Below the pieces are notes generated by a model. The model was not told the origin of the DNA, did no database searches, and saw only the letters and a list, made by a program, of their open reading frames with translations. A stretch of DNA of 64,000 nucleotides, from IMG/VR virus record IMGVR_UViG_3300033463_005796, one strand, 5' to 3'. Made by a program: the position numbers and the translations under genes. This stretch comes from an uncultured virus (IMG/VR IMGVR_UViG_3300033463_005796) (lineage: Duplodnaviria > Heunggongvirae > Uroviricota > Caudoviricetes). Position 1 is the stretch's first letter. Each line of letters starts with the position of its first letter. Shown piece after piece: positions 12,149 through 42,060 of the stretch.

Positions 12149-13696
12149 CTATGCTGCTAGAGCTTTTCGGACTGCATCATAGCGTGGAGCATCAAGCTGC
12201 TCAATGATGATGTCATATGGGTCAAGCTTGTTGCTCATCACCATCTTCATGATCGACTGGTTGAAGCCAGAAATCAATCCAACACCAAGGTCATTCTCAA
12301 CCATTGGGATTGTCCCAGTACGTGAGTTGATGTTCCAGAAGAAGAGCTTTGGCATCTTGTAGCCGGCAGCTTTCCACTTTTTCTCAATCTCTTTGAACAG
12401 ATATTCGCCTGGATTCTCACAAGCAAAATTGAACTCCATGTCAGAGAAGATGATGATCCCTGGAATCTCTTCTTGCTTGAGGTTTGCATTGACAGCTGTC
12501 CTCAAAACAAGGTCAAACACTGCTTCAAGGTTAGTTGTGCCACAATCTCCATGGCGTCCAGCAATCTTGAGCTGATTTAGAAGAGAACCATCTGAATCGA
12601 CTTGGAAGAACTCTGGATGGCTTCCAAACTCAATTGCTTTGCCACGCCATGGCTCAGCGTTGATTCCAGCAAAGTAGAGACCAAGGCCACGTGCAACGTC
12701 AATTGCCATGATGTTTCCACCAACATTTGTGCACATTGAACCGGAGCCATCAATCACTGGAATGAAGTTCGTGATTCCTTGCTGGCGGCCTTTTTCGACC
12801 ATGTCTTTCCAAGCAGCTTCAAGCGTAGCATCTTTGCTGTTTGAATAGTCACCATACCATCTGTCAGTGCAGTACTTAGAGACGATTGTTGGGCAATCAA
12901 GTGCTGCTGTGTTGATCTTAGCGCCTGACTCTGGCTTCTCAAGGTCTGCAAGCCATTGGCGACGACGAGTTTCATCGTGCTTCAAGAAGCTGTTTCTGTA
13001 GATGACTCCTGCACGAGATGGAACTTTGTTGTAGTCGATTTCACCCCACTTGTTAGAAGACATCTGAGTTTCAAGAACCTTGATATAACCACGGAGGGAA
13101 GCCAAAGTCTTGCGGTATTCCTTTTCCGTGATTCCAAGGACGTTGCGCCAGTATCTTGCAAGGTTCTTTGATTCTTGCGAAGATGCATTTGCAGATGGAC
13201 ACCACTTAGCCATCAATGAAATGCTCTTGTCAGCATCCATCCCATCGATGTCTTTGTCCCACTGGTCAACAAAAAGAAGGTTCGCTGCTTTCCGAACATC
13301 TTCAGACGCAGAAAGGAAATAAGGCGTCAACTCGAAGAATGACTTCCACGATCCATATTCAGGAATTAAGGAAAGCAGCGAAATTGCTGCAGCTGGATCA
13401 TTTTCAATGACCCAACCAAAAATCGCGTTGAAGACATGCTTCTCACCTTGGCCACCACGGCAGTCACGGACAAAGAACATCAACTCAAGTGCACGCTGCT
13501 TGTCTTCAGCATACACTTCTGAGAATGCTCTTTGAATGTCAACTGGACCAAGCTTGCGCATTGATCCAACTTTAAAAAAGAAATCGGTCAATGCATGACC
13601 TGATCGTGCATAACCTTTTGCGCCATTTTCTGTGATTGAGACTGAACCTTCAGCGTCAGTCTTCTGGAGTGAAGAGAGAAATTTGTTTGTCTTCAT
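12149..13696 (-). CDS. DUF2828-family protein (TROVE/Ro60-like helical domain plus VWA)
   Basis: TENGA, FFVRDCRGGQGEK, IPEYGSWK, LMAKWCPS, EYRKTL, IDYNKVPS, DGSGSM, TNLEAVFDLVL, FSDMEFN, FWNIN, SGF. Confidence 0.85.
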   Translation of the reverse strand: MKTNKFLSSLQKTDAEGSVSITENGAKGYARSGHALTDFFFKVGSMRKLGPVDIQRAFSEVYAEDKQRALELMFFVRDCRGGQGEKHVFNAIFGWVIENDPAAAISLLSLIPEYGSWKSFFELTPYFLSASEDVRKAANLLFVDQWDKDIDGMDADKSISLMAKWCPSANASSQESKNLARYWRNVLGITEKEYRKTLASLRGYIKVLETQMSSNKWGEIDYNKVPSRAGVIYRNSFLKHDETRRRQWLADLEKPESGAKINTAALDCPTIVSKYCTDRWYGDYSNSKDATLEAAWKDMVEKGRQQGITNFIPVIDGSGSMCTNVGGNIMAIDVARGLGLYFAGINAEPWRGKAIEFGSHPEFFQVDSDGSLLNQLKIAGRHGDCGTTNLEAVFDLVLRTAVNANLKQEEIPGIIIFSDMEFNFACENPGEYLFKEIEKKWKAAGYKMPKLFFWNINSRTGTIPMVENDLGVGLISGFNQSIMKMVMSNKLDPYDIIIEQLDAPRYDAVRKALAA

Positions 13697-13738: not shown

Positions 13739-13799
13739 CAAGACACGTTTTGTTTCTTGATCCTAATTAAGAAATTGAAGTATTGCTGTATGTGTCTTT
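13739..13799 (-). ncRNA. CAGCAA-stem RNA copy A (5' leader of the DUF2828 gene)
   Basis: AAGACAC-ATACAGCAA...GTGTCTT terminal stem with inner TTTCTT/AAGAAA hairpin. Confidence 0.65.
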
Positions 13800-13837: not shown

Positions 13838-13943
13838 CAAGACGCATTTTTCTTTAGGAGTTTCCTCCCTGATGGATTTGAACCATCTAACGGAATTTTC
13901 AGTTCTGTATTTTACCAATTTATGTGTTGCTGTGTGCGTCTTT
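13838..13943 (-). ncRNA. CAGCAA-stem RNA copy B with tRNA-like insert
   Basis: AAGACGCA-CACAGCAA...TGCGTCTT; contains GAA-CTGAAAA-TTC anticodon-like arm and GATGG-TTCAAAT-CCATC T arm. Confidence 0.7.
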
Positions 13944-13961: not shown

Positions 13962-14106
13962 TGGTACAGAAGGCAGTGTTTGATTTAGCAATTACGAGGC
14001 ACGCCGCCTCAAGCTTTCCTTTCTGCATCAGCTGCAGAGCTCCTCGCTCAACAGCATACCCTTAACCGTGGATAATTAATGTTTTATGTGTTGCTGCATG
14101 TGCCTC
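13962..14106 (-). ncRNA. CAGCAA-stem RNA copy C, CCA-ended
   Basis: GAGGCAC-ATGCAGCAA...GTGCCTC; paralogous to copy D over its length. Confidence 0.65.
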
Positions 14107-14120
14107 AAAATTGTTTGAAA

Positions 14121-14651
14121 TTATTTCTTGTCAATCGGATCAGGATCGGCTGAATCTGTGCAGAAGAAAATGCCAGGCTTGAATCCGAAAACTTCATTTG
14201 CAAGATCCTGATACAATGTGCTTGCCTTTCCATCTACGTCAGACAGATCATCATTGAAGAATTGAACGACTTTCTTTTTGAAGACGAAGTAGTCAACCTT
14301 GTCTATAAAAACATCACGGATAGATTCGACACGAGAAAGTGCAGGATTTCCCTCGAACGCTTCACGAAGAAGCTGGTCAGCATCTTCTGTCTCGACAATA
14401 TTATCAATGCGCTCAGGAATGACTGTTGTTCTAACAACCACGTTTCCAAAAACGCGCTCAGCAGGAATCAACTTCTCAATTGCTTCTGCTTTCTTGTTTC
14501 CAACAACGTAGATTTTGACTTCTGGAGTCTTGCACTCTTCATCGAGTTCAACACGGACATTCTCATCTTCAGAGAAGAGAGCTTCAATTTGACGGAAATA
14601 TGTCACCCAAGGGGAAGACAATTTGATAGTTTTTTGCTGTGCTTTCATCAT
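14121..14651 (-). CDS. hypothetical protein embedded in the CAGCAA RNA cluster
   Basis: KLSSPW...VVQFFNDDLSD...STLYQDLANEVF; likely start MMKAQ. Confidence 0.7.
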   Translation of the reverse strand: MMKAQQKTIKLSSPWVTYFRQIEALFSEDENVRVELDEECKTPEVKIYVVGNKKAEAIEKLIPAERVFGNVVVRTTVIPERIDNIVETEDADQLLREAFEGNPALSRVESIRDVFIDKVDYFVFKKKVVQFFNDDLSDVDGKASTLYQDLANEVFGFKPGIFFCTDSADPDPIDKK

Positions 14652-14680
14652 AAGTTTTTTGTGTTTTGTTTGAAATGGCA

Positions 14681-14834
14681 TGGAGAGCGGTGTTAGATTT
14701 GACTATTACGAGGCACGTCGCCTCTATCTTGCTTTTCCACATCAGTTGAAGATGAGTCATATACGGATCTAGCCGGATCTACCTTCAACAATCGTACCTT
14801 GATTTAAGTATTTGTGTGTTGCTGTGTGTGCCTC
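14681..14834 (-). ncRNA. CAGCAA-stem RNA copy D, CCA-ended
   Basis: GAGGCAC-ACACAGCAA...GTGCCTC, internal GTTGAAG/CTTCAAC stem. Confidence 0.65.
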
Positions 14835-14875
14835 AAAATGTTTATGAATATAATATACTCAACCTATTTACTTTT

Positions 14876-16629: not shown

Positions 16630-17481
16630 CTATTCTCCATCTTTCTTTGGAAAGAGCTTTCCAATCTTGTCTTCTTCTGTAGAAAGCTTGTAGTCCATTT
16701 TCAGTGGGACAACTTTAGTTCTAACCATGGTGTCTTCACCTGGATGGAACTGAGCATACTTTGGATCAATCTTCTCGATTGATGTCTTCTTGATGAGCCA
16801 GTGCCCATACAGAATATTGAAATCAATGCCCATCAGATGATGACCAGCCTTTGAAAGCATTTCAATGCGTTGGTCTTGTGACTTTCCAAGCAGTTCTTTG
16901 TGAGTGAACCACCTCTGCGCATATTGGTTGATAGCGCCACGAATGCAGTCATTCTGCCTCCAGACGAAGCAGTTGACAAGCTCCATCAGATCTGGAAGCT
17001 GGACAATCCTGCAATCAAATGATGGATATTCATTCTGCAAAATTGCAACGTCATCACGCTCTCTTTTAAGATCTAGAATACTTCCATCTCCAAAGAAATT
17101 AAAGACTGATCTTGTAAAAGCCATGCCAGCGTAAGATGCAATGTTCGAGACAAGCTTGAAGTATTTTCTATCAAATGGCGCAGTCTTGATGTTCTTCCAA
17201 CCAAGTGAGATCTCATCTGAATGTGTTTCAGCAACATCACACTTGAACTCGTTCATAAGCATGTAAGCGGTTGTTTGCATAAGCTGAGAAAACACAAATG
17301 AACGCTTCTCAGCAGGAAGATCCTTGAATGGATATCCAAGATTCTTAGTCAGCTTTGAAAAGTGGCGCCCGTCAATCCGTGCATATAGAGGAAGATCAGG
17401 AATGAGCAGCTGTCCATTTGCTACTTCCTCATAGCGCTTCATACGCTGTCCAAGCGCATCATACTCGTTTTCTTTGCTCAT
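16630..17481 (-). CDS. Thg1-like protein (tRNA-His guanylyltransferase / 3'-5' polymerase family)
   Basis: RMKRYE, RIDGRHFSK, HSDEISL, FDCR, WRQNDC motifs. Confidence 0.9.
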   Translation of the reverse strand: MSKENEYDALGQRMKRYEEVANGQLLIPDLPLYARIDGRHFSKLTKNLGYPFKDLPAEKRSFVFSQLMQTTAYMLMNEFKCDVAETHSDEISLGWKNIKTAPFDRKYFKLVSNIASYAGMAFTRSVFNFFGDGSILDLKRERDDVAILQNEYPSFDCRIVQLPDLMELVNCFVWRQNDCIRGAINQYAQRWFTHKELLGKSQDQRIEMLSKAGHHLMGIDFNILYGHWLIKKTSIEKIDPKYAQFHPGEDTMVRTKVVPLKMDYKLSTEEDKIGKLFPKKDGE

Positions 17482-17774
17482 TCTGCTTGATCCCAAAGGA
17501 TTGTAAGGCTTACTGTTTGTGTTGCAGTTCTATAGCTATGCTTAACTTCATATCCAAGATATTCTAGCCAATCAATGATTCCCTCGTATACTGGCTGTGA
17601 CTCATAGATTTGAAGAGCATTCACATCATCATAATATGCCATGTTTTCACCTTTGGCAATTTCCTTTTCAATGACTCGTTCAATGTCTTTACGAATCTTT
17701 TCTGGAACAAATCGAGCTGCAAGCTCAATGTTCCTTTTCTTAGTAGCTTCTAAAGCTTCTTTAGCTGTCTTCAT
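17478..17774 (-). CDS. hypothetical protein
   Basis: ATGA overlaps with both neighbours. Confidence 0.6.
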   Translation of the reverse strand: MKTAKEALEATKKRNIELAARFVPEKIRKDIERVIEKEIAKGENMAYYDDVNALQIYESQPVYEGIIDWLEYLGYEVKHSYRTATQTVSLTILWDQAE

Positions 17775-22493: not shown

Positions 22494-23711
22494 TTAGTCT
22501 CCATTCTTGAGAAGGTACTTAGCTGAGACCTTCTTGAAGGAGATTTCTCCATTGTCGATTCTTTTGAAGACAACACCCTCGATCTGGTTTCCATTGTCAG
22601 ACTTCCGATCGACATACTTCTCAAAGTCTTCAATTGAATGGAGCTTCTGGAAGATCTTGCAAGTCTCAATGACCTTGACATGCTCAAGGCCAAGGAACTC
22701 ACAGATAGAGTATCTGACTTCCGGAGAGACAAACTTCTGGTCAGTGATGTCAAAGATGCGGAAGACTCTGAAGTGAGACTCAGCATTCTTGTCACGGTTG
22801 CCATTGAACTTTGGTCCAATCATTTCACCTTGGATTGCAAGCTCATGCTTAGCCGGGAAGATTTCTACGTCACCATCTTTTCTCACTAAGCCAATGCCAT
22901 ACAGCGTGTCAAGTCTGTTTTTCAGACCATCCCAGCCAATCTTCTTGAAAGCAGCAAACCAGTCATCGCTTCCACCATCGTCTTTCAAGAGGAAACGACG
23001 AGAAGAGATCTGCATTGCATCTTTTCCAGTCTCGGGGTTCCAAGTCAAAGGACGGTAGAAGAGGGTGCAAGAAGAACCATCATTCTTCTCAGTGCATTCC
23101 CAATCAGCATTGGCCATCTCTGGGTCAGTGAAGTATTCCATCAGTGCCTCAAGGCGGATCTCATCAGTCTTAGGAACATCTGAAGGGAAATTGCCTGAAG
23201 CATGGGACTGTGCTCTAGGACCGAGCTGAGAACGCTCGTCAAACCACTCGACAAGACGATCATAGACTTCAACTTTGAAGAGTGAAGTCATGTCAGTCCC
23301 AACAGGAAGATCTATGAAGAATGGAGTCTCAGGAGTGTTAGGAAACTCATGAGCAATTGTCTGCAGAGGAATGACAAGACCTTGAGAGACTTGGCCACGA
23401 AGCTTGATAGTCTTGATCTTCACATACTGCTCAGAGAATGCTGAAGACTCGGGTGTCTTTCCAGTGTAAAGCTTCTTCAAAGCTACGTTCTTAAGGAACT
23501 CCATGCAAGGAAGAAGATCATTGACATTGATTGCTGAGTCAATCTCGAAGTAGACGACCTTCTGACCAACAGAAAATTCACCTTTCTTTACGACGACTTT
23601 CCAGCCAAGGTTCTTCATCTCAGCTACTTCAAGAAAGTCAGAGTTCTCAATAGGAGAAAGCTTAGCAATCTCCTGGATTGACGCCATTTTACGTTGAGTT
23701 TCAGTAAGCAT
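22494..23711 (-). CDS. ATP-dependent RNA ligase, DRB0094/Rnl5-like
   Basis: N-terminal RKMASIQ...WKVVVKKGEF...VYFEIDS...KLRGQVSQGL; PKTDEIR; motif I EKNDGSS; QGEMIGP; FDI; EGVVFK; SFKKVS. Confidence 0.9.
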   Translation of the reverse strand: MLTETQRKMASIQEIAKLSPIENSDFLEVAEMKNLGWKVVVKKGEFSVGQKVVYFEIDSAINVNDLLPCMEFLKNVALKKLYTGKTPESSAFSEQYVKIKTIKLRGQVSQGLVIPLQTIAHEFPNTPETPFFIDLPVGTDMTSLFKVEVYDRLVEWFDERSQLGPRAQSHASGNFPSDVPKTDEIRLEALMEYFTDPEMANADWECTEKNDGSSCTLFYRPLTWNPETGKDAMQISSRRFLLKDDGGSDDWFAAFKKIGWDGLKNRLDTLYGIGLVRKDGDVEIFPAKHELAIQGEMIGPKFNGNRDKNAESHFRVFRIFDITDQKFVSPEVRYSICEFLGLEHVKVIETCKIFQKLHSIEDFEKYVDRKSDNGNQIEGVVFKRIDNGEISFKKVSAKYLLKNGD

Positions 23712-23769: not shown

Positions 23770-24948
23770 TCATTCTATTTCAAAAAGCTGAATGAACTTG
23801 TCATCAGTGATTGACACCACAAAGTCATCTGTCAGCTTGCCATCATACGCCTTGAACCAAAGCATTGCCTGCGGCTCATTCTTATGACGAAGAGCAAAAT
23901 CTTTTCTAGAAAGGTGCTCTTCATTGATTTCACCATCAACACAAGTCTTAATGAACTTTACTCTCAGCATTGCAGCATTGACTCGAAGTCTAACCTCATC
24001 AAAGCGCTCCTTGTACTCGGGGAAATATGAAAGGAATTCAGCATCTTCACCTTTGCGGATCAAAGCTACCATTGCTTCTAGATCCATTGCTCCGTTTGAC
24101 ATCTGCTTGTGCAGTTGGAAATAGAGCTTTGATTTCATCTTGATCCTATTGCCATTGCCATCTCTGACAACAATGCCCTCATGCTTAATGCCAAATCCTT
24201 CAACAAGATTCGTGTAGTCTTCAGGAGACTTCATCTCATAAGCTGTTGGAGTGTCAACACCTAGCTGATATCCAACATAGCCATCAACCACAAGGTTCCC
24301 CGTCAGCTCTGCTCCATCTTCATTTCTGAACCTGCCAATAAGGAAGAGCTTTGGCTTTGGATAGTCAATGACAATGCGATTGAACCTAGAGCAAAGCTCA
24401 AAGCAATATGTCGCCTTCTTCCAAAGATATCCTCCTGTAAATGGATCTTTGCTATCCGGGCTTTCAAGCTTTTTCTTGAATTTAGGATAGTTCTTCTCAA
24501 TAATGTCTCTCAGCAGTGCGCCAAATGTTGGGTAGATGGCATCTGACAGTTCTGCTTCATCTACATCGAAGTTCTGTCGAGTTCCAAAAATCCAACGTCC
24601 ATCATAGTATGAAAGAAACACTAGTGTCCCATCTTCCTTGATTGTGGCATTTGCAGTGTCCCAATCGATATTTGCAGCAGGGCCTTCACCATAGTTGAAG
24701 AACCTGTTGAACCCCTTTCTTACGATTTTGAACTTCTCTTTTGAGTCAAGGACAAGGCCACGAGCTTCAGCTACGATTGGATCATAGTTGTCAGACTCAA
24801 GCATGTTGTAGTTGAACATGACATAGCGTCCATCTGCAAAAGACGAACGCTTGATCTTCAATGAATAAGGAGGTAGCTGAAGTGCAGCTTCCCAATCATC
24901 ATGCTCAAAAATGAACTTTTGAATGTTTAGCATCTTTTTATAGGTCAT
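23770..24948 (-). CDS. T4 Rnl1-like RNA ligase
   Basis: EARGLVL, RFFNYGE, motif I KEDGTL, FELCS...NRIV, EGIVV, RIKMKS. Confidence 0.88.
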   Translation of the reverse strand: MTYKKMLNIQKFIFEHDDWEAALQLPPYSLKIKRSSFADGRYVMFNYNMLESDNYDPIVAEARGLVLDSKEKFKIVRKGFNRFFNYGEGPAANIDWDTANATIKEDGTLVFLSYYDGRWIFGTRQNFDVDEAELSDAIYPTFGALLRDIIEKNYPKFKKKLESPDSKDPFTGGYLWKKATYCFELCSRFNRIVIDYPKPKLFLIGRFRNEDGAELTGNLVVDGYVGYQLGVDTPTAYEMKSPEDYTNLVEGFGIKHEGIVVRDGNGNRIKMKSKLYFQLHKQMSNGAMDLEAMVALIRKGEDAEFLSYFPEYKERFDEVRLRVNAAMLRVKFIKTCVDGEINEEHLSRKDFALRHKNEPQAMLWFKAYDGKLTDDFVVSITDDKFIQLFEIE

Positions 24949-25771
24949 CTAGTGTTTGTTCTTCACCCTTGCACATTGCAAGGAACTCTTTCTCAGACAG
25001 GAGCTTTGTCCCAAGCTCACGAGCTTTGCAGGCTTTAGTCGATGTGCTGTTAGGATCAGCAATGACAAGATAAGTAAGGCCCTTTGAAACACTGCTCTTG
25101 ATCTCAAACCCAACAGACTCAGCAAGCTTCTGAGCTTCAGTCCGCCCCATTGTCTCAAGTGCGCCTGTGAAACAAATAGACCCCTTAGAAGATGGGCGAG
25201 CGACATCATCTACTCCGCTATAGTGGTATCTAGAATCAGTAACAATCTTCTTTGTATTCTCAATGGCTTCAGGAAGATATTCCCAAAAAGCTTCAATTGA
25301 CTTCTCACCAATTCCAGCAGGAAGAGTTGAAAGCATATGCTGCTTCTCATTGTCTTCATGCTTCAGGCCCATGATCCAGTCAAAATGGTAATGCTCGATG
25401 ATCTTTCCAATCTGAACTTCTGCTAGACCCTTGAAGTGCATTGCTCTAAAGATCTTCTGTGGAGAAGCTGAAAACAGCTTGTCATTCAGCTCATTGTAAA
25501 GTGTAGTCTCACTCTTATAGTTTGGATTTGGAGTGAATGAGATCAAATCACTGACAGTCTTGATTCCAAAGTTGTCAAGCTGCTTCTTAGCTGAATGCTT
25601 GATGTCAAACTTCTTGATGAACACAGTCAAAGCAGTGCCAAGCTTAGCTTCACACTCTTTGTTCATGCATCGAAGGTCAACACCATCAACCACCAATGGA
25701 GATCCACAGCATGGACAGACCATTGGCGCCAGATAGCGGTCATGTAGCTCTTGAACTGAAATGTCTTTCAT
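24938..25771 (-). CDS. NAD-dependent DNA ligase, C-terminal part (Zn finger, HhH, BRCT)
   Basis: CPCCGSPL...LRCMNKEC, GIGEKS HhH, ICFTGAL...SSVSKGLTYLV...KARELG BRCT. Confidence 0.85.
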   Translation of the reverse strand: MKDISVQELHDRYLAPMVCPCCGSPLVVDGVDLRCMNKECEAKLGTALTVFIKKFDIKHSAKKQLDNFGIKTVSDLISFTPNPNYKSETTLYNELNDKLFSASPQKIFRAMHFKGLAEVQIGKIIEHYHFDWIMGLKHEDNEKQHMLSTLPAGIGEKSIEAFWEYLPEAIENTKKIVTDSRYHYSGVDDVARPSSKGSICFTGALETMGRTEAQKLAESVGFEIKSSVSKGLTYLVIADPNSTSTKACKARELGTKLLSEKEFLAMCKGEEQTLDDL

Positions 25772-27104: not shown

Positions 27105-27180
27105 TGGAGCATTCGGTGGGTGCCGCCCCCACGTATAGCGGTTTTGCAGACCGCCGCGTTTGCTGTTTCGCCACGAATGC
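27105..27180 (-). tRNA. tRNA-Cys(GCA)
   Basis: GCGGT-CTGCAAA-ACCGC, U73, atypical T loop. Confidence 0.85.
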
Positions 27181-28322: not shown

Positions 28323-28985
28323 TTATTTACCATTTTTAATTTTTCGCCCAGCTTTCCAACCATTTGGAATAGATTCTGTTTTAAAAATTGTTTTTGATTC
28401 TAAGGTCTTAATATTATAAATCCAAATTTTACCATACATTGCATTTTTATTTTTAAAATGGTTTTTTGACATTTTCTTTCTTGTTTCTTCAGAATGATTT
28501 TTTCCAAACATTGGATTTTTATTACCGACTCTACTAAATTTTTCAGGATTATTTAGTTTTGCTTTTGCTATTCCTTCTTTTACTCTTTTTTTATGATATT
28601 CAGATAATTTTTTCCCTATTTTGCCAATATTATTTAATTTCATTTTATTTATGTAAATAAATCCAAAATTTCCATCATTAATACTATCTCTATTTTTATT
28701 TATATAATCCCATCCACCATCTCCACCAACTTTTAAATTATACGTATCATCTCTAGCTACAAACTCTTCATTAACAATCTCTTTTTCTTTTGCATCCATT
28801 TCATCTTTGTCCTTACAAAAGAAAAGAATTTTTCTATCAAAATTTTCTATGCCATATTTATTAATAGCATTCCAAAGAATTTTTCCTGATCCTAAATAAC
28901 CATCATTGAGATTATTTGTTTGGTGCTGACCAATATAAATTTTTCCATTTATTTTATTTGTTGTTTGATAAATTAAAAAATACAT
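28323..28985 (-). CDS. GIY-YIG (Seg-like) homing endonuclease with NUMOD3 motif
   Basis: LIYQTTNKINGKIYIGQH, YLGSG, YNLKVGG, NPMFGKNHSEETRKKMS; AT-rich. Confidence 0.88.
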   Translation of the reverse strand: MYFLIYQTTNKINGKIYIGQHQTNNLNDGYLGSGKILWNAINKYGIENFDRKILFFCKDKDEMDAKEKEIVNEEFVARDDTYNLKVGGDGGWDYINKNRDSINDGNFGFIYINKMKLNNIGKIGKKLSEYHKKRVKEGIAKAKLNNPEKFSRVGNKNPMFGKNHSEETRKKMSKNHFKNKNAMYGKIWIYNIKTLESKTIFKTESIPNGWKAGRKIKNGK

Positions 28986-29026
28986 AATTGAACCTTTAAA
29001 AATATTTACTTTTTAAAGGTTCAATT
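28986..29026 (-). promoter_or_regulatory. perfect 16-bp inverted repeat abutting the endonuclease ATG, with AGTAAATAT in the loop
   Basis: AATTGAACCTTTAAAA-N9-TTTTAAAGGTTCAATT. Confidence 0.7.
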
Positions 29027-29033
29027 CTAAGCT

Positions 29034-29107
29034 TTGCGGGAGCATGATTTGAACATGCAACACACGGGTTATGGGCCCGTTGAGCTACCGGGTTGCTCTA
29101 TCCCGCA
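29034..29107 (-). tRNA. initiator-type tRNA-Met(CAT), no encoded CCA
   Basis: ACGGG-CCCATAA-CCCGT with three G:C pairs, GAGC/GCTC D stem. Confidence 0.88.
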
Positions 29108-29196
29108 GTAATTAAAGGTTCAATATTATTTACAAAAAACCCATCAGAGTTGAACCTCAAGGAGAATTACTTCTATCTTGAACTCTGATGAATAAG

Positions 29197-29277
29197 AGAG
29201 TCCGCTACTCTGCCGATTGAGTTACACCGGAATAATTGGTTCCGGTGGAGGGACTTGAACCCTCAACTCGCGGATTA
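29197..29277 (-). tRNA. circularly permuted tRNA, most likely Lys(CTT), split in the anticodon
   Basis: 3' half 29277-29237 (TAATCCGC...CACCGGAACCA) precedes 5' half 29231-29197 (TCCGGTG...GCGGACTCT); all four stems pair. Confidence 0.8.
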
Positions 29278-29352
29278 TGGCAAGGCACCCGGGAGTTGAA
29301 CCCGGCTCTTCGGGATGAAAGCCCGATGAACTAACCGATATTCGAGTGCCTC
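29278..29352 (-). tRNA. tRNA-Glu(TTC)
   Basis: TCGGG-CTTTCAT-CCCGA, G73, CCA. Confidence 0.9.
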
Positions 29353-29965: not shown

Positions 29966-30040
29966 TGGAGCCGGCTGAGAATTCCGAGATCTCGACCCGC
30001 GGTTTACAAAACCGCTGCTCTGCCGCTGAGCTAAGCCGGC
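29966..30040 (-). tRNA. tRNA-Thr(TGT)
   Basis: GCGGT-TTTGTAA-ACCGC, atypical T arm. Confidence 0.87.
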
Positions 30041-30880: not shown

Positions 30881-31025
30881 GGATCATCTAGCCAGACTTG
30901 CACTGACGGCTCCCACTGAAATGTACACGCTCTACCGGACTGAGCTACAGTACCCTTTCGAGTACCGATTGGATTTGAACCAATGACCTTGTGGTGTGGC
31001 GCTCTACTACCTGAGCTATAGATGA
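30881..31025 (-). ncRNA. double-tRNA (dumbbell) RNA
   Basis: outer tRNA halves enclose a permuted tRNA domain whose acceptor stem is capped by GAAA. Confidence 0.8.
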
Positions 31026-32036: not shown

Positions 32037-33119
32037 TTAAATTTTTCTTCCATTGACTTCAACAATCTTTGGAATGATCTCACCAGACTTAAGGACTTTG
32101 ACATTGGCGCCAGGATGGATGTCATTCTTCGTGATGAAGTCTACATTGTAGAGGCTTGCTTTCTGGACAATTGTCCCTGCAAGCTCAACCGGGTCAAGCA
32201 AAGCGACTGGGACAAACTTGCCGTCTTTGGATGGACCAGTCCATTCAATCCCTACGACTACTGAATCTGCAATAGACTCATTGATCTTGTAAGCAATCTG
32301 GTTCTCTGGAATGAGCTTGTCTTCATTCCTGTAGCTGTCATCAGACATGACAAGGCCATCGACTCCATAAGGGAATGGCTGCTTGACATAGCGGCGAAGC
32401 TCTTCATTGAAGCGCTCAAAGCTTTCAGCTGTCAGAGTGTAGACTTCAGTTGGCGTGATAGTCTTGTTCCAAGCTACATAGAAGCCATTCTTCTCAAGGA
32501 ATTCAAACTGCTCTTTCTTAGTGAACTTGTCGCCAAACACCGTGTAAGCGACAAATGTGATCTTCTTCAGGTCTTCAGTGATGTCTTTGCGTCCAACAAT
32601 CCCTGCAGTAGCATTGCGAGGATTGGCAAAGTCAAGGCCTTCAAAGTCTTTTTCAAGGATGACAAGCTCACCACGGATGTCAAGAGTGCTCTTGTCATAG
32701 ATCGACTTTGGAACATAGCTGACGCTGAAGATCTTGTCAGTGATGTTCTCACCTCTGCTTCCATCTCCACGAGTAGTTGCAGATACTAAGCTTCCATTCT
32801 CATAATGGAGCCTGCAGCTGATGCCATCGACTTTAGCACTGATGTTCAGTCCAGTCGTGACATGGCTGTTAAGCCACTTCTCAAGGTTCTCGGGCTCTTC
32901 AGCTTTGAACTTCTCAAGAGAGCCCATAGGATATGGATGCTGGACTTTGCCAGCTTTCTCAAACAGCGTTGAACGGAACTTTGTCCACTCTTCAAATGAA
33001 AGATTGCTTCTAAGCTCATCACAAAGGCCATCAAACTCCTGGTCAGACATCACAGGATTGCCTTCACGATAAGCAACGTTAGCAGAAATGATTTTGCTCT
33101 TGAGTTCAGCAGTAGTCAT
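32037..33119 (-). CDS. ligA: NAD-dependent DNA ligase, N-terminal part (Ia, adenylation, OB domains)
   Basis: YREGNPVMSDQEFD, HPYPMGSLEK, KVDG, TRGDGSRGENIT, RGE, NPRNATAG, DGLV, AYK, KSGEIIPKI then stop. Confidence 0.9.
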   Translation of the reverse strand: MTTAELKSKIISANVAYREGNPVMSDQEFDGLCDELRSNLSFEEWTKFRSTLFEKAGKVQHPYPMGSLEKFKAEEPENLEKWLNSHVTTGLNISAKVDGISCRLHYENGSLVSATTRGDGSRGENITDKIFSVSYVPKSIYDKSTLDIRGELVILEKDFEGLDFANPRNATAGIVGRKDITEDLKKITFVAYTVFGDKFTKKEQFEFLEKNGFYVAWNKTITPTEVYTLTAESFERFNEELRRYVKQPFPYGVDGLVMSDDSYRNEDKLIPENQIAYKINESIADSVVVGIEWTGPSKDGKFVPVALLDPVELAGTIVQKASLYNVDFITKNDIHPGANVKVLKSGEIIPKIVEVNGRKI

Positions 33120-39108: not shown

Positions 39109-40251
39109 TCAAGAGGCCTTTTCTTTTGCAAGAGAAACCATCGACAGGAACTCAGACTCGGACAGAAGCTTTGTCCCAAATGCACGCGCACGGCAAGCTT
39201 TGATCGACGTAGAGTTAGGATCAGCCATCACAAGGTATTTCAAGCTTTGTGTCACACTAGTATGGATGTCAAATCCAACAGACCGAGCAAGCTTCTGCGC
39301 ATCTGCACGAGTCATTGTCTCAAGTGCGCCTGTGAAGCAGATAGAGCCTTTATAAGGAACTGTCTTGTTCTGAGGAACTTCTTCTGGCTTGTCAAGCGTA
39401 CTGGCTGCAAGCTCTAGCATGTCAATAGAAGGAGGAGCAGAAGGAGCATCAGCTGCAATAGGCTCTTCAGCCATTGGAGCTTCCGGCTCAACAGGAACCT
39501 GAATCTCCTTCTTTCTGAAGATGATCAAGTTCTGCCCGTATTCAACATGCTTGAACTCAGAATACTCATAGCCATCAGCAATGATCTCACGGAACTTCTC
39601 CTTGCAGACTGCAAGGAACTCATTGCGCTTAGTTGCACGGCACCAGTTCCTCTTCTTCTTGCTGTCAGGAATTGGACCAACACCGACAGTCTGAAAATGA
39701 CGGAACCGATAGAGCTGCTTGTCCGGATCGAACCAAAGCGAATAAGTGTTGTGAACTCCTCGAGAATAGCTGCCTTTACTTTGGTAGTTGTAAGACCATC
39801 CAGTATCAAAGTCAACAATGGCTTTTTCTAGAGGAACTAGTGTGACACGGTCAACACCATTCTTTCGAGACCAAGAAGCATGGTCGTTGTCAAGACAAAG
39901 AAGATGGACATCAGGCGTAGTATTTCCCCAAGAAGTCGGCTTGATGAAGCCATCAGGAAGCTTATAGAACTTTGAATCATTCCCTGAAAGGCCCCCTCGG
40001 AAAGAACGCTCAAACGCTTCACAGTAATTTCGGCCAATCTTTCGAACTTCTCGATTGCCAGCTTCTACCTTGACTCGAACTTCTTCATACTTTCGGATCA
40101 TGGCTTCATGAAGAGCATCAGAGATGTCCTTCGGAAGATACTGCTCTTTGACAATCGGGTGAGAAGTCGCAGCTCCCCAACCGGGACCGTTGTACCACTT
40201 CTCAGTGCAGATCGAGATGAGCTCACCGGGGAATTCAGCTTTGCGTGCCAT
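39109..40251 (-). CDS. protein with C-terminal ligase-type BRCT domain
   Basis: KGSICFTGALETM...ADPNSTS.KAC.AR..GTKLLSE.EFL nearly identical to BRCT of 24938..25771. Confidence 0.8.
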   Translation of the reverse strand: MARKAEFPGELISICTEKWYNGPGWGAATSHPIVKEQYLPKDISDALHEAMIRKYEEVRVKVEAGNREVRKIGRNYCEAFERSFRGGLSGNDSKFYKLPDGFIKPTSWGNTTPDVHLLCLDNDHASWSRKNGVDRVTLVPLEKAIVDFDTGWSYNYQSKGSYSRGVHNTYSLWFDPDKQLYRFRHFQTVGVGPIPDSKKKRNWCRATKRNEFLAVCKEKFREIIADGYEYSEFKHVEYGQNLIIFRKKEIQVPVEPEAPMAEEPIAADAPSAPPSIDMLELAASTLDKPEEVPQNKTVPYKGSICFTGALETMTRADAQKLARSVGFDIHTSVTQSLKYLVMADPNSTSIKACRARAFGTKLLSESEFLSMVSLAKEKAS

Positions 40252-41938: not shown

Positions 41939-42060
41939 CAAGACGCATTTGTTACGTTACTCTATCAACTGAGCTACAGTCTCGATTTGGCGAGACTGGT
42001 GGGACTCAAACCCACGACCAACGGGTTAATAGCCAAGTATGTTTTGCTGTATGCGTCTTT
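41939..42060 (-). ncRNA. CAGCAA-stem RNA copy E with permuted tRNA domain (YrlA-like architecture)
   Basis: AAGACGCA-TACAGCAA...TGCGTCTT enclosing T arm, CAGTCTCG-CCAAAT-CGAGACTG acceptor hairpin, D arm. Confidence 0.8.

Follow-up and report, generated by a model that had tools for sequence, protein, structure and literature searches.

The window, the 64,000-nt stretch of DNA from an uncultured virus that was analyzed here at its full length, carries an array of tRNA genes on its minus strand. ARAGORN identified 26 tRNAs and Rfam added two, giving 28 tRNAs that cover 18 amino acids, and several of the array tRNAs abut without a spacer. The two genes missed by ARAGORN and found by Rfam, tRNA-Cys(gca) (27108-27180, minus strand) and tRNA-Thr(tgt) (29969-30040, minus strand), have odd T arms. 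The window DNA has a GC content of 42% and occurs in metagenome runs from the ruminant gut, and proteins 74-87% identical to one window protein sit on contigs of 270-300 kb. A permuted tRNA-like sequence, referred to below as the element, lies within the array in the following arrangement.

29278-29352, minus strand: tRNA-Glu(ttc), called by ARAGORN and Rfam; its CCA abuts the element.
29197-29277, minus strand: the whole permuted tRNA-like element, read from the sequence, directly after the CCA of tRNA-Glu(ttc).
29237-29277, minus strand: 3' half, consisting of TAA, the 3' strand of the anticodon stem, a 5-nt variable loop, the T arm, the 3' strand of the acceptor stem, the discriminator A and CCA (sequence, ARAGORN and MFE fold).
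29232-29236, minus strand: linker ATTAT that closes the acceptor hairpin (sequence and MFE fold), with a predicted RNase P site at its 3' edge.
29197-29231, minus strand: 5' half, consisting of the 5' strand of the acceptor stem, the D arm, the 5' strand of the anticodon stem and CTCT (sequence, ARAGORN, fold and covariation).
29133-29190, minus strand: long imperfect hairpin (29142-29190) followed by GGG and a T6 run (MFE fold), the terminator-like end of the Pro-Asn-Glu-element unit.

This order of 3' half with ACCA, ATTAT linker and 5' half on the minus strand had been proposed in a first-pass annotation of the locus and is correct in every detail. The 21 stem pairs of the element all form (acceptor 7/7, D 4/4, anticodon 5/5 and T 5/5), and the pairing, which the same annotation had described, is seen both in the ARAGORN drawing and in the unconstrained MFE fold. 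The fold of 29125-29277 consists of the permuted cloverleaf, then the long hairpin at 29142-29190 and the T run, with an energy of -49.7 kcal/mol (z = -4.5) that was equalled by none of 200 shuffles. Rotation of the two halves yields a 76-nt tRNA-Lys(ctt) drawn by ARAGORN with U33, A37, A73, G18G19 and a normal T loop; the program is permissive, returning a tRNA of some kind for 534 of the 1530 combinations of breakpoints. The anticodon depends on where the 7-nt loop is cut. It reads CTT when the halves contribute 4+3 nucleotides, CTC when they contribute 5+2, 6+1 or 7+0, and CAT when the A of the Glu CCA is used, so that the identity is Lys, Glu or Met by cut position, as the caveat in the first-pass annotation had anticipated.

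The downstream hairpin was not called by a simple terminator scan, and a search for a repeat family elsewhere in the window found none (5 matches at ≤3 mismatches versus 4.7 expected). The motif TTGAACCTTTAA occurs on both sides of the neighboring tRNA-Met(cat) (29034-29107), at 28986-29026 and at ~29115-29126 on the minus strand; the copy downstream of tRNA-Met(cat) is a 17-bp perfect hairpin and is followed by a GIY-YIG endonuclease gene (28323-28985).

The rotated element was compared with the 28 tRNAs of the window and one tRNA from the related contig L012. The nearest relative is the latter gene, which shares 73% identity with the element, and the others reach at most 68%. It is located as follows.

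L012 3181-3257, plus strand: canonical tRNA-Lys(ctt) between tRNA-Asn and tRNA-Glu, unusual in its T loop (AGCAAAG); absent from the window and from the related 8-kb locus L002.

The 7-nt anticodon loops of the two RNAs are identical, and their anticodon stems differ by one flipped pair. As judged from this comparison, the element is shown here to descend from a phage tRNA-Lys(CUU) gene, which upholds the earlier proposal of a circularly permuted gene derived from tRNA-Lys(CTT). The tRNA-Glu(ttc) of L012 (3263-3400, plus strand) has a 63-nt hairpin insertion in its anticodon loop that is too short for a group I intron, and a contig of run X4 apparently has ~75 additional nucleotides at the corresponding site of tRNA-Glu in the window (29317), judged from record coordinates.

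Homologues of the element were sought with a pattern scan of metagenomes, which returned 14 loci. Twelve are chance matches in unrelated sequence and two, L002 and L012, are true homologues whose element sequences are identical, leaving one distinct homologue for comparison with the window (n = 2 sequences). The search pattern fixed the acceptor stem, which places acceptor-stem covariation outside what the comparison can show. The 81-nt core differs by 14 substitutions and two indels, and the flanks differ by one change in 86 upstream columns, tRNA-Glu included, and by two substitutions and one indel in 76 downstream columns. Pairing is kept in 8 of 8 stem substitutions: one anticodon-stem pair and two T-stem pairs are changed on both sides, and two further pairs go from G-C to G-U. 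The D arm is invariant, the consensus positions of the T loop are kept, and the linker in the homologue is 7 nt long and differs from ATTAT. The downstream hairpin is bulged and near-invariant, with one substitution in 49 nt between the window and L002. Over the element and the hairpin, 38 of 38 pairs form in both the window and the homologue versus 38-46% in slid-partner controls, and a shuffle control, which is weak with two sequences, gave 69/500. The first-pass annotation had named loss of stem complementarity in homologues as an outcome that would refute its reading; the L002/L012 homologue keeps every pair.

Further contigs with the element came from four other runs and differ from the window at 1 of 76 nt (X7), 8 of 137 nt (X4) and 15 of 390 nt (X6). 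A single X7 contig, with 30 letters on its short side, has the element immediately after the CCA of tRNA-Thr(cgt). In contigs of X3 and X4, the entire Asn-Glu-element block is missing from this position. No homologue of the element was found in cultured phages. In IMG/VR, neither the Rnl1-like protein of the window used as query nor two exact DNA patterns found a relative, and one match, in coding DNA, is due to chance.

The substitution pattern indicates that the fold of the element is under selection, and a decaying remnant is unlikely because the stem pairs have been kept through compensatory changes. A neutral leftover of a tandem tRNA-Lys duplication from which both outer halves were deleted would follow the accepted route to permuted genes set out in PMC3978253, and the absence of the Asn-Glu-element block from some relatives is in keeping with it. 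The 8 of 8 paired substitutions and the retained T-loop consensus already disfavor this origin, and we consider it highly improbable.

YrlA-type Y RNAs contain a tRNA-like module with the same permuted order as the element. The Rfam YrlA model (RF02553) gave a local match at 29200-29272 (32.3 bits, E = 1.2e-5 on 191 nt, model positions 23-88), aligning the T arm, the closed acceptor hairpin and the D arm in the order of the model. Any permuted tRNA would match this core of the model, and the scores of the element (32.3 bits) and of the L002/L012 homologue (34.5 bits) are below the gathering threshold of 69 bits. The window contains a candidate partner protein and several further RNAs of this general kind.

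12149-13696, minus strand: protein with a Ro60-like fold (Pfam DUF2828 + DUF7788; AlphaFold model and Foldseek).
~14710-14836, 13996-14106, 13839-13942 and 13740-13798, minus strand: four Y-RNA-like genes directly upstream of the Ro60-like gene, recognized by a motif and a closing helix.
41940-42059, minus strand: E2, a Y-RNA-like gene (full YrlA model, 39.7 bits); the acceptor loop of its permuted tRNA-like module starts GCCA.
30884-31025, minus strand: E3, an outer tRNA-like RNA with a 7-bp acceptor stem and an inner permuted module (30924-30992) in its anticodon region (YrlA, 30.8 bits).

The AlphaFold model of the 12149-13696 protein has a pLDDT of 79, and its match to Ro60/TROVE structures spans the whole protein. 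Foldseek hits at E ≤ 0.001 were Ro60/TROVE proteins in 12 of 12 cases, including that of Thermus phage phiLo. Sequence searches gave no TROVE match (Pfam, E ≤ 10) and no match in the PDB, and the predicted fold is what links the protein to Ro60. Its relatives in IMG/VR are distant (26-42% identity). Phage Ro60 homologues are described as binding phage-encoded Y-like RNAs (PMC12135203).

The Y-RNA-like family comprises five genes, the four upstream of the Ro60-like gene and E2. Each has a 16-nt 5' motif, AAGACRCAYACAGCAA or a GAGGCAC variant, and a closing helix of 7-9 bp that covaries in the upstream four. The first gene (~14710-14836) lies beyond an ORF at 14121-14681, and the gene at 13839-13942 holds a T-arm-like hairpin. 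The 5' motif has four matches in the window at ≤2 mismatches versus 0.16 expected (at 13783, 13927, 14819 and 42044), and a fifth, variant copy at ~14106 was seen by eye. The upstream four match no Rfam family at E ≤ 0.01 in a whole-window scan. The window was also scanned for T arms with a closed acceptor hairpin of 7 bp directly after them; three of the minus-strand hits are the element, 41977-42015 in E2 and 30948-30984 in E3.

The ends of E2 pair in a 9-bp closing helix. E2 is probably a Y RNA of the Ro60-like system because it has the same 5' motif and end helix as the genes beside the Ro60-like gene. The first-pass annotation had drawn a parallel between the element and a "Tyr case", which is this locus; the parallel is not supported, since E2 carries the Y-RNA-like motif and closing helix and Tyr was obtained in 0 of 1530 rotated constructs. 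The inner acceptor loop of E3 is CGAAAG and lacks a CCA. In its homologue (L002 5694-5836, minus strand), the inner acceptor hairpin is a different 7-bp stem, the T stem covaries and the rest is almost unchanged; the double structure of E3 was drawn by hand and is not recovered by the MFE fold (z = -0.3). Two other phages (L016 3624-3723 and L022 3362-3473) have an over-long tRNA in normal tRNA order, with a 27-40-nt insertion near the anticodon stem, just downstream of a related DUF2828 gene, a candidate partner RNA.

The element could be a Y RNA proper if the phage Ro60-like protein bound the downstream hairpin instead of an end helix. The protein is encoded in the same window, 15.5 kb away, phage Ro60 homologues bind Y-like RNAs, and the hairpin is bulged and nearly unchanged between the window and L002. 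The end helix that binds Ro60 and the conserved 5'-strand motif are absent from the element, where the upstream flank is tRNA-Glu and the sole flank pairing is 4 bp after a 5-nt bulge, and a pattern search of the window found no AAGACRCAYACAGCAA motif with a closing helix near 29.2 kb. No Ro60-type partner site is thus evident. The hairpin and U run also read as a plain terminator, and YrlA-type matches were found in 0 of 6 other phage loci near a related protein and in 0 of 2 whole IMG/VR records. Membership in the Y RNAs proper is unlikely.

The first-pass annotation had gone further and had the two halves joined into a working tRNA-Lys. The genes that bear on this proposal lie in one block with the Ro60-like gene.

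22494-23711, minus strand: RNA ligase of the PF09414 type (Pfam), beside the tRNA array.
23770-24948, minus strand: RNA ligase of the T4 Rnl1 type, PF09511 (Pfam), beside the tRNA array.
16630-17496, minus strand: gene for a Thg1-like 3'-5' polymerase of this block.

The window also encodes an AAA_33 kinase-like protein and two phosphoesterases. NAD-dependent DNA ligase domains sit on separate minus-strand ORFs at 32037-33119, 24938-25771 and 39109-40251, with adenylation and OB, zinc finger and BRCT, and BRCT parts.

In a true permuted tRNA gene, RNase P and trimming would open the acceptor end, and an Rnl1-type ligase would then seal the healed ends of the anticodon loop to give a decoding tRNA-Lys(CUU). 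The rotated sequence has the features of a canonical tRNA, the tRNA most similar to it is the canonical L012 tRNA-Lys(ctt), the halves sum exactly to the anticodon loop of that tRNA, the window encodes the repair enzymes listed above, and the element starts right after a CCA in two contexts, Glu and, in the one X7 contig, Thr(cgt). No canonical tRNA-Lys was found in the window or in L002, and Lys and Tyr are the only amino acids without a tRNA in the window. The latter count was rejected as proof of function: the window is part of a larger phage with scattered tRNAs and relatives of ~300 kb.

Several observations stand against joining. A BHB motif with a 4-bp central helix was found in 0 of 18 layouts, the best having 2 of 4 central-helix pairs, in agreement with the earlier reader, who had seen none. 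No Pfam match to a tRNA-splicing endonuclease was found among the 35 larger ORFs scanned. The 5' half continues without a break through a spacer of 10 nt to the terminator-like hairpin. That hairpin is present where the first-pass annotation reported it; its suggested role in defining the 3' end of the 5' half is unsupported, as nothing marks a cut after position 35. The anticodon varies with the cut, and the sibling modules E2 and E3 cannot be re-joined into tRNAs. L012 has the canonical tRNA-Lys(ctt) and the element together, which argues that the element is not needed as a tRNA. A literature search found no permuted tRNA gene of a phage or bacterium; the 34 such genes counted in a 2014 review come from algae and one archaeon, and all depend on BHB motifs (PMC3978253). 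Joining into a working tRNA-Lys is therefore unsupported, and a true permuted tRNA gene is distinctly unlikely. If this reading were true, permuted tRNA genes would for the first time be known beyond algae and archaea, and the element would have a ligase-based maturation route.

A specific BHB-free route can be drawn up in which RNase P and trimming open the acceptor loop, phage end-healing enzymes and the Rnl1-type ligase close the anticodon loop, and tRNA-Lys arises only where the repair set is active. There is a small chance that maturation proceeds in this way. If so, it might, for example, provide a tRNA-Lys supply that a Lys-directed anticodon nuclease could not deplete beforehand.

The position of the element suggests a role in processing in which the RNA itself does nothing: an RNase P site in the mimic would free the tRNA operon from the terminator hairpin for upstream 3' maturation. 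The element is the last unit before the terminator-like hairpin, and the abutting array tRNAs imply that RNase P cuts define many 3' ends. Acceptor and T arms would suffice for this purpose, yet the D arm is invariant and the anticodon stem is compensated, and tRNA-Glu would stay fused to the 3' half. A pure processing module is very doubtful.

The reading that we favor, by a modest measure, is that the element is a non-decoding tRNA mimic, a permuted derivative of tRNA-Lys(CUU) built like the tRNA-like module of a YrlA Y RNA. It folds as a permuted cloverleaf, is conserved by compensatory change, descends from tRNA-Lys and keeps company with Y-RNA-like genes and a Ro60-like protein. The selection evidence for a mimic comes from two distinct homologous sequences whose acceptor stem was fixed by the search pattern. 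Several points count against a mimic. The YrlA scores are far below 69 bits. The element has neither the 16-nt motif nor the closing helix that the five Y-RNA-like genes have in common. The full 5-bp anticodon stem and the halves that sum exactly to the Lys loop are features that a mere mimic would not need. The tRNAs of the window lack only Lys and Tyr.

The element would be the final part of the Pro-Asn-Glu operon transcript, which would end at the hairpin and U run. The two halves would fold into an L-shape with a normal elbow in which the acceptor stem is closed by a loop starting ACCA and the ends of the RNA are on the anticodon-stem side. By analogy with Mycobacterium smegmatis YrlA, RNase P would cut immediately 5' of the acceptor 5' strand, and the linker would be trimmed by exonucleases to the encoded CCA. 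This would leave a tRNA look-alike of two pieces with a CCA end, held together by 12 base pairs and tertiary contacts. We infer that the open anticodon end stays unjoined and that no codon is read. The RNA may instead pass for a tRNA and be bound by tRNA-handling enzymes, by the phage RNA-repair set or by a tRNA-directed host nuclease.

If the element is such a mimic, phage tRNA genes give rise to new tRNA mimics, which the phages use without a Ro60-binding stem, the defining feature of Y RNAs. The class would then be wider, and partners other than Ro60 would be expected. The window provides a compact test bed, in which a Ro60-like protein and five Y-RNA-like genes occur together with the putative orphan mimic of Lys type, a double tRNA-like RNA, a Thg1-like enzyme and two RNA ligases.

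The permuted tRNA genes of algae and Thermofilum pendens resemble the element in having a 3' half, an intervening sequence and a 5' half on one strand, and in forming a rotated canonical cloverleaf with the break in the anticodon loop; two of the T. pendens genes also encode CCA (PMC3978253, PMC3218864). Unlike these genes, the element has no BHB motif at its termini, and a splicing endonuclease is not expected in a bacterial host. A circular intermediate and a joined product are hallmarks of the algal and T. pendens genes, whereas the element is known here from its sequence.

Two-piece tmRNA, the product of permuted ssrA, shows that a tRNA-like RNA can be encoded by a permuted gene in bacteria. 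Its precursor undergoes cleavage in the acceptor loop, and the RNA functions as two base-paired pieces with a CCA end (PMC3985003). The tag reading frame, pseudoknots and alanine charging described there for tmRNA are not seen in the element. Phage tRNAs that evade or neutralize tRNA-cleaving defenses (PMC10264068, PMC11464382, PMC11555353) share with the element a Lys-type body, a tRNA array and RNA-repair neighbors; as reported, they are ordinary contiguous tRNAs, unlike the permuted element. By analogy, a decoy role against a tRNA-cleaving defense can be hypothesized.

The closest likeness in layout is to the YrlA-type Y RNAs, which have the same succession of stem strand, variable loop, T arm, closed acceptor hairpin, D arm and stem strand. 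They are reported to be present in most phage genomes searched by Chen et al. 2014 (PMC4201824), and the genome of the element likewise encodes a Ro60-like protein. The YrlA of M. smegmatis has a 7-bp acceptor stem like that of the element and CCA at the acceptor 3' strand; it is cut in vitro by RNase P RNA and is found in vivo as two halves, one of them CCA-ended (PMC4201824). By this precedent, finding CCA and an acceptor stem of 7 bp in a permuted RNA of tRNA-like form does not by itself point to a decoding tRNA. The element differs from YrlA in having no Ro60-binding end helix, no conserved 5' motif and no adjacent Ro60-like gene, and in having a full 5-bp anticodon stem, both halves of the Lys anticodon loop and a 5' end that abuts the CCA of tRNA-Glu. 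The CCA of the element is part of its gene, whereas CA is added to M. smegmatis YrlA once the RNA has been cut (PMC4201824), and unlike Rfam YrlA members the element scores less than half of the cut-off. These likenesses and differences are consistent with an orphan, Lys-derived variant within an already known design of permuted tRNA mimics.
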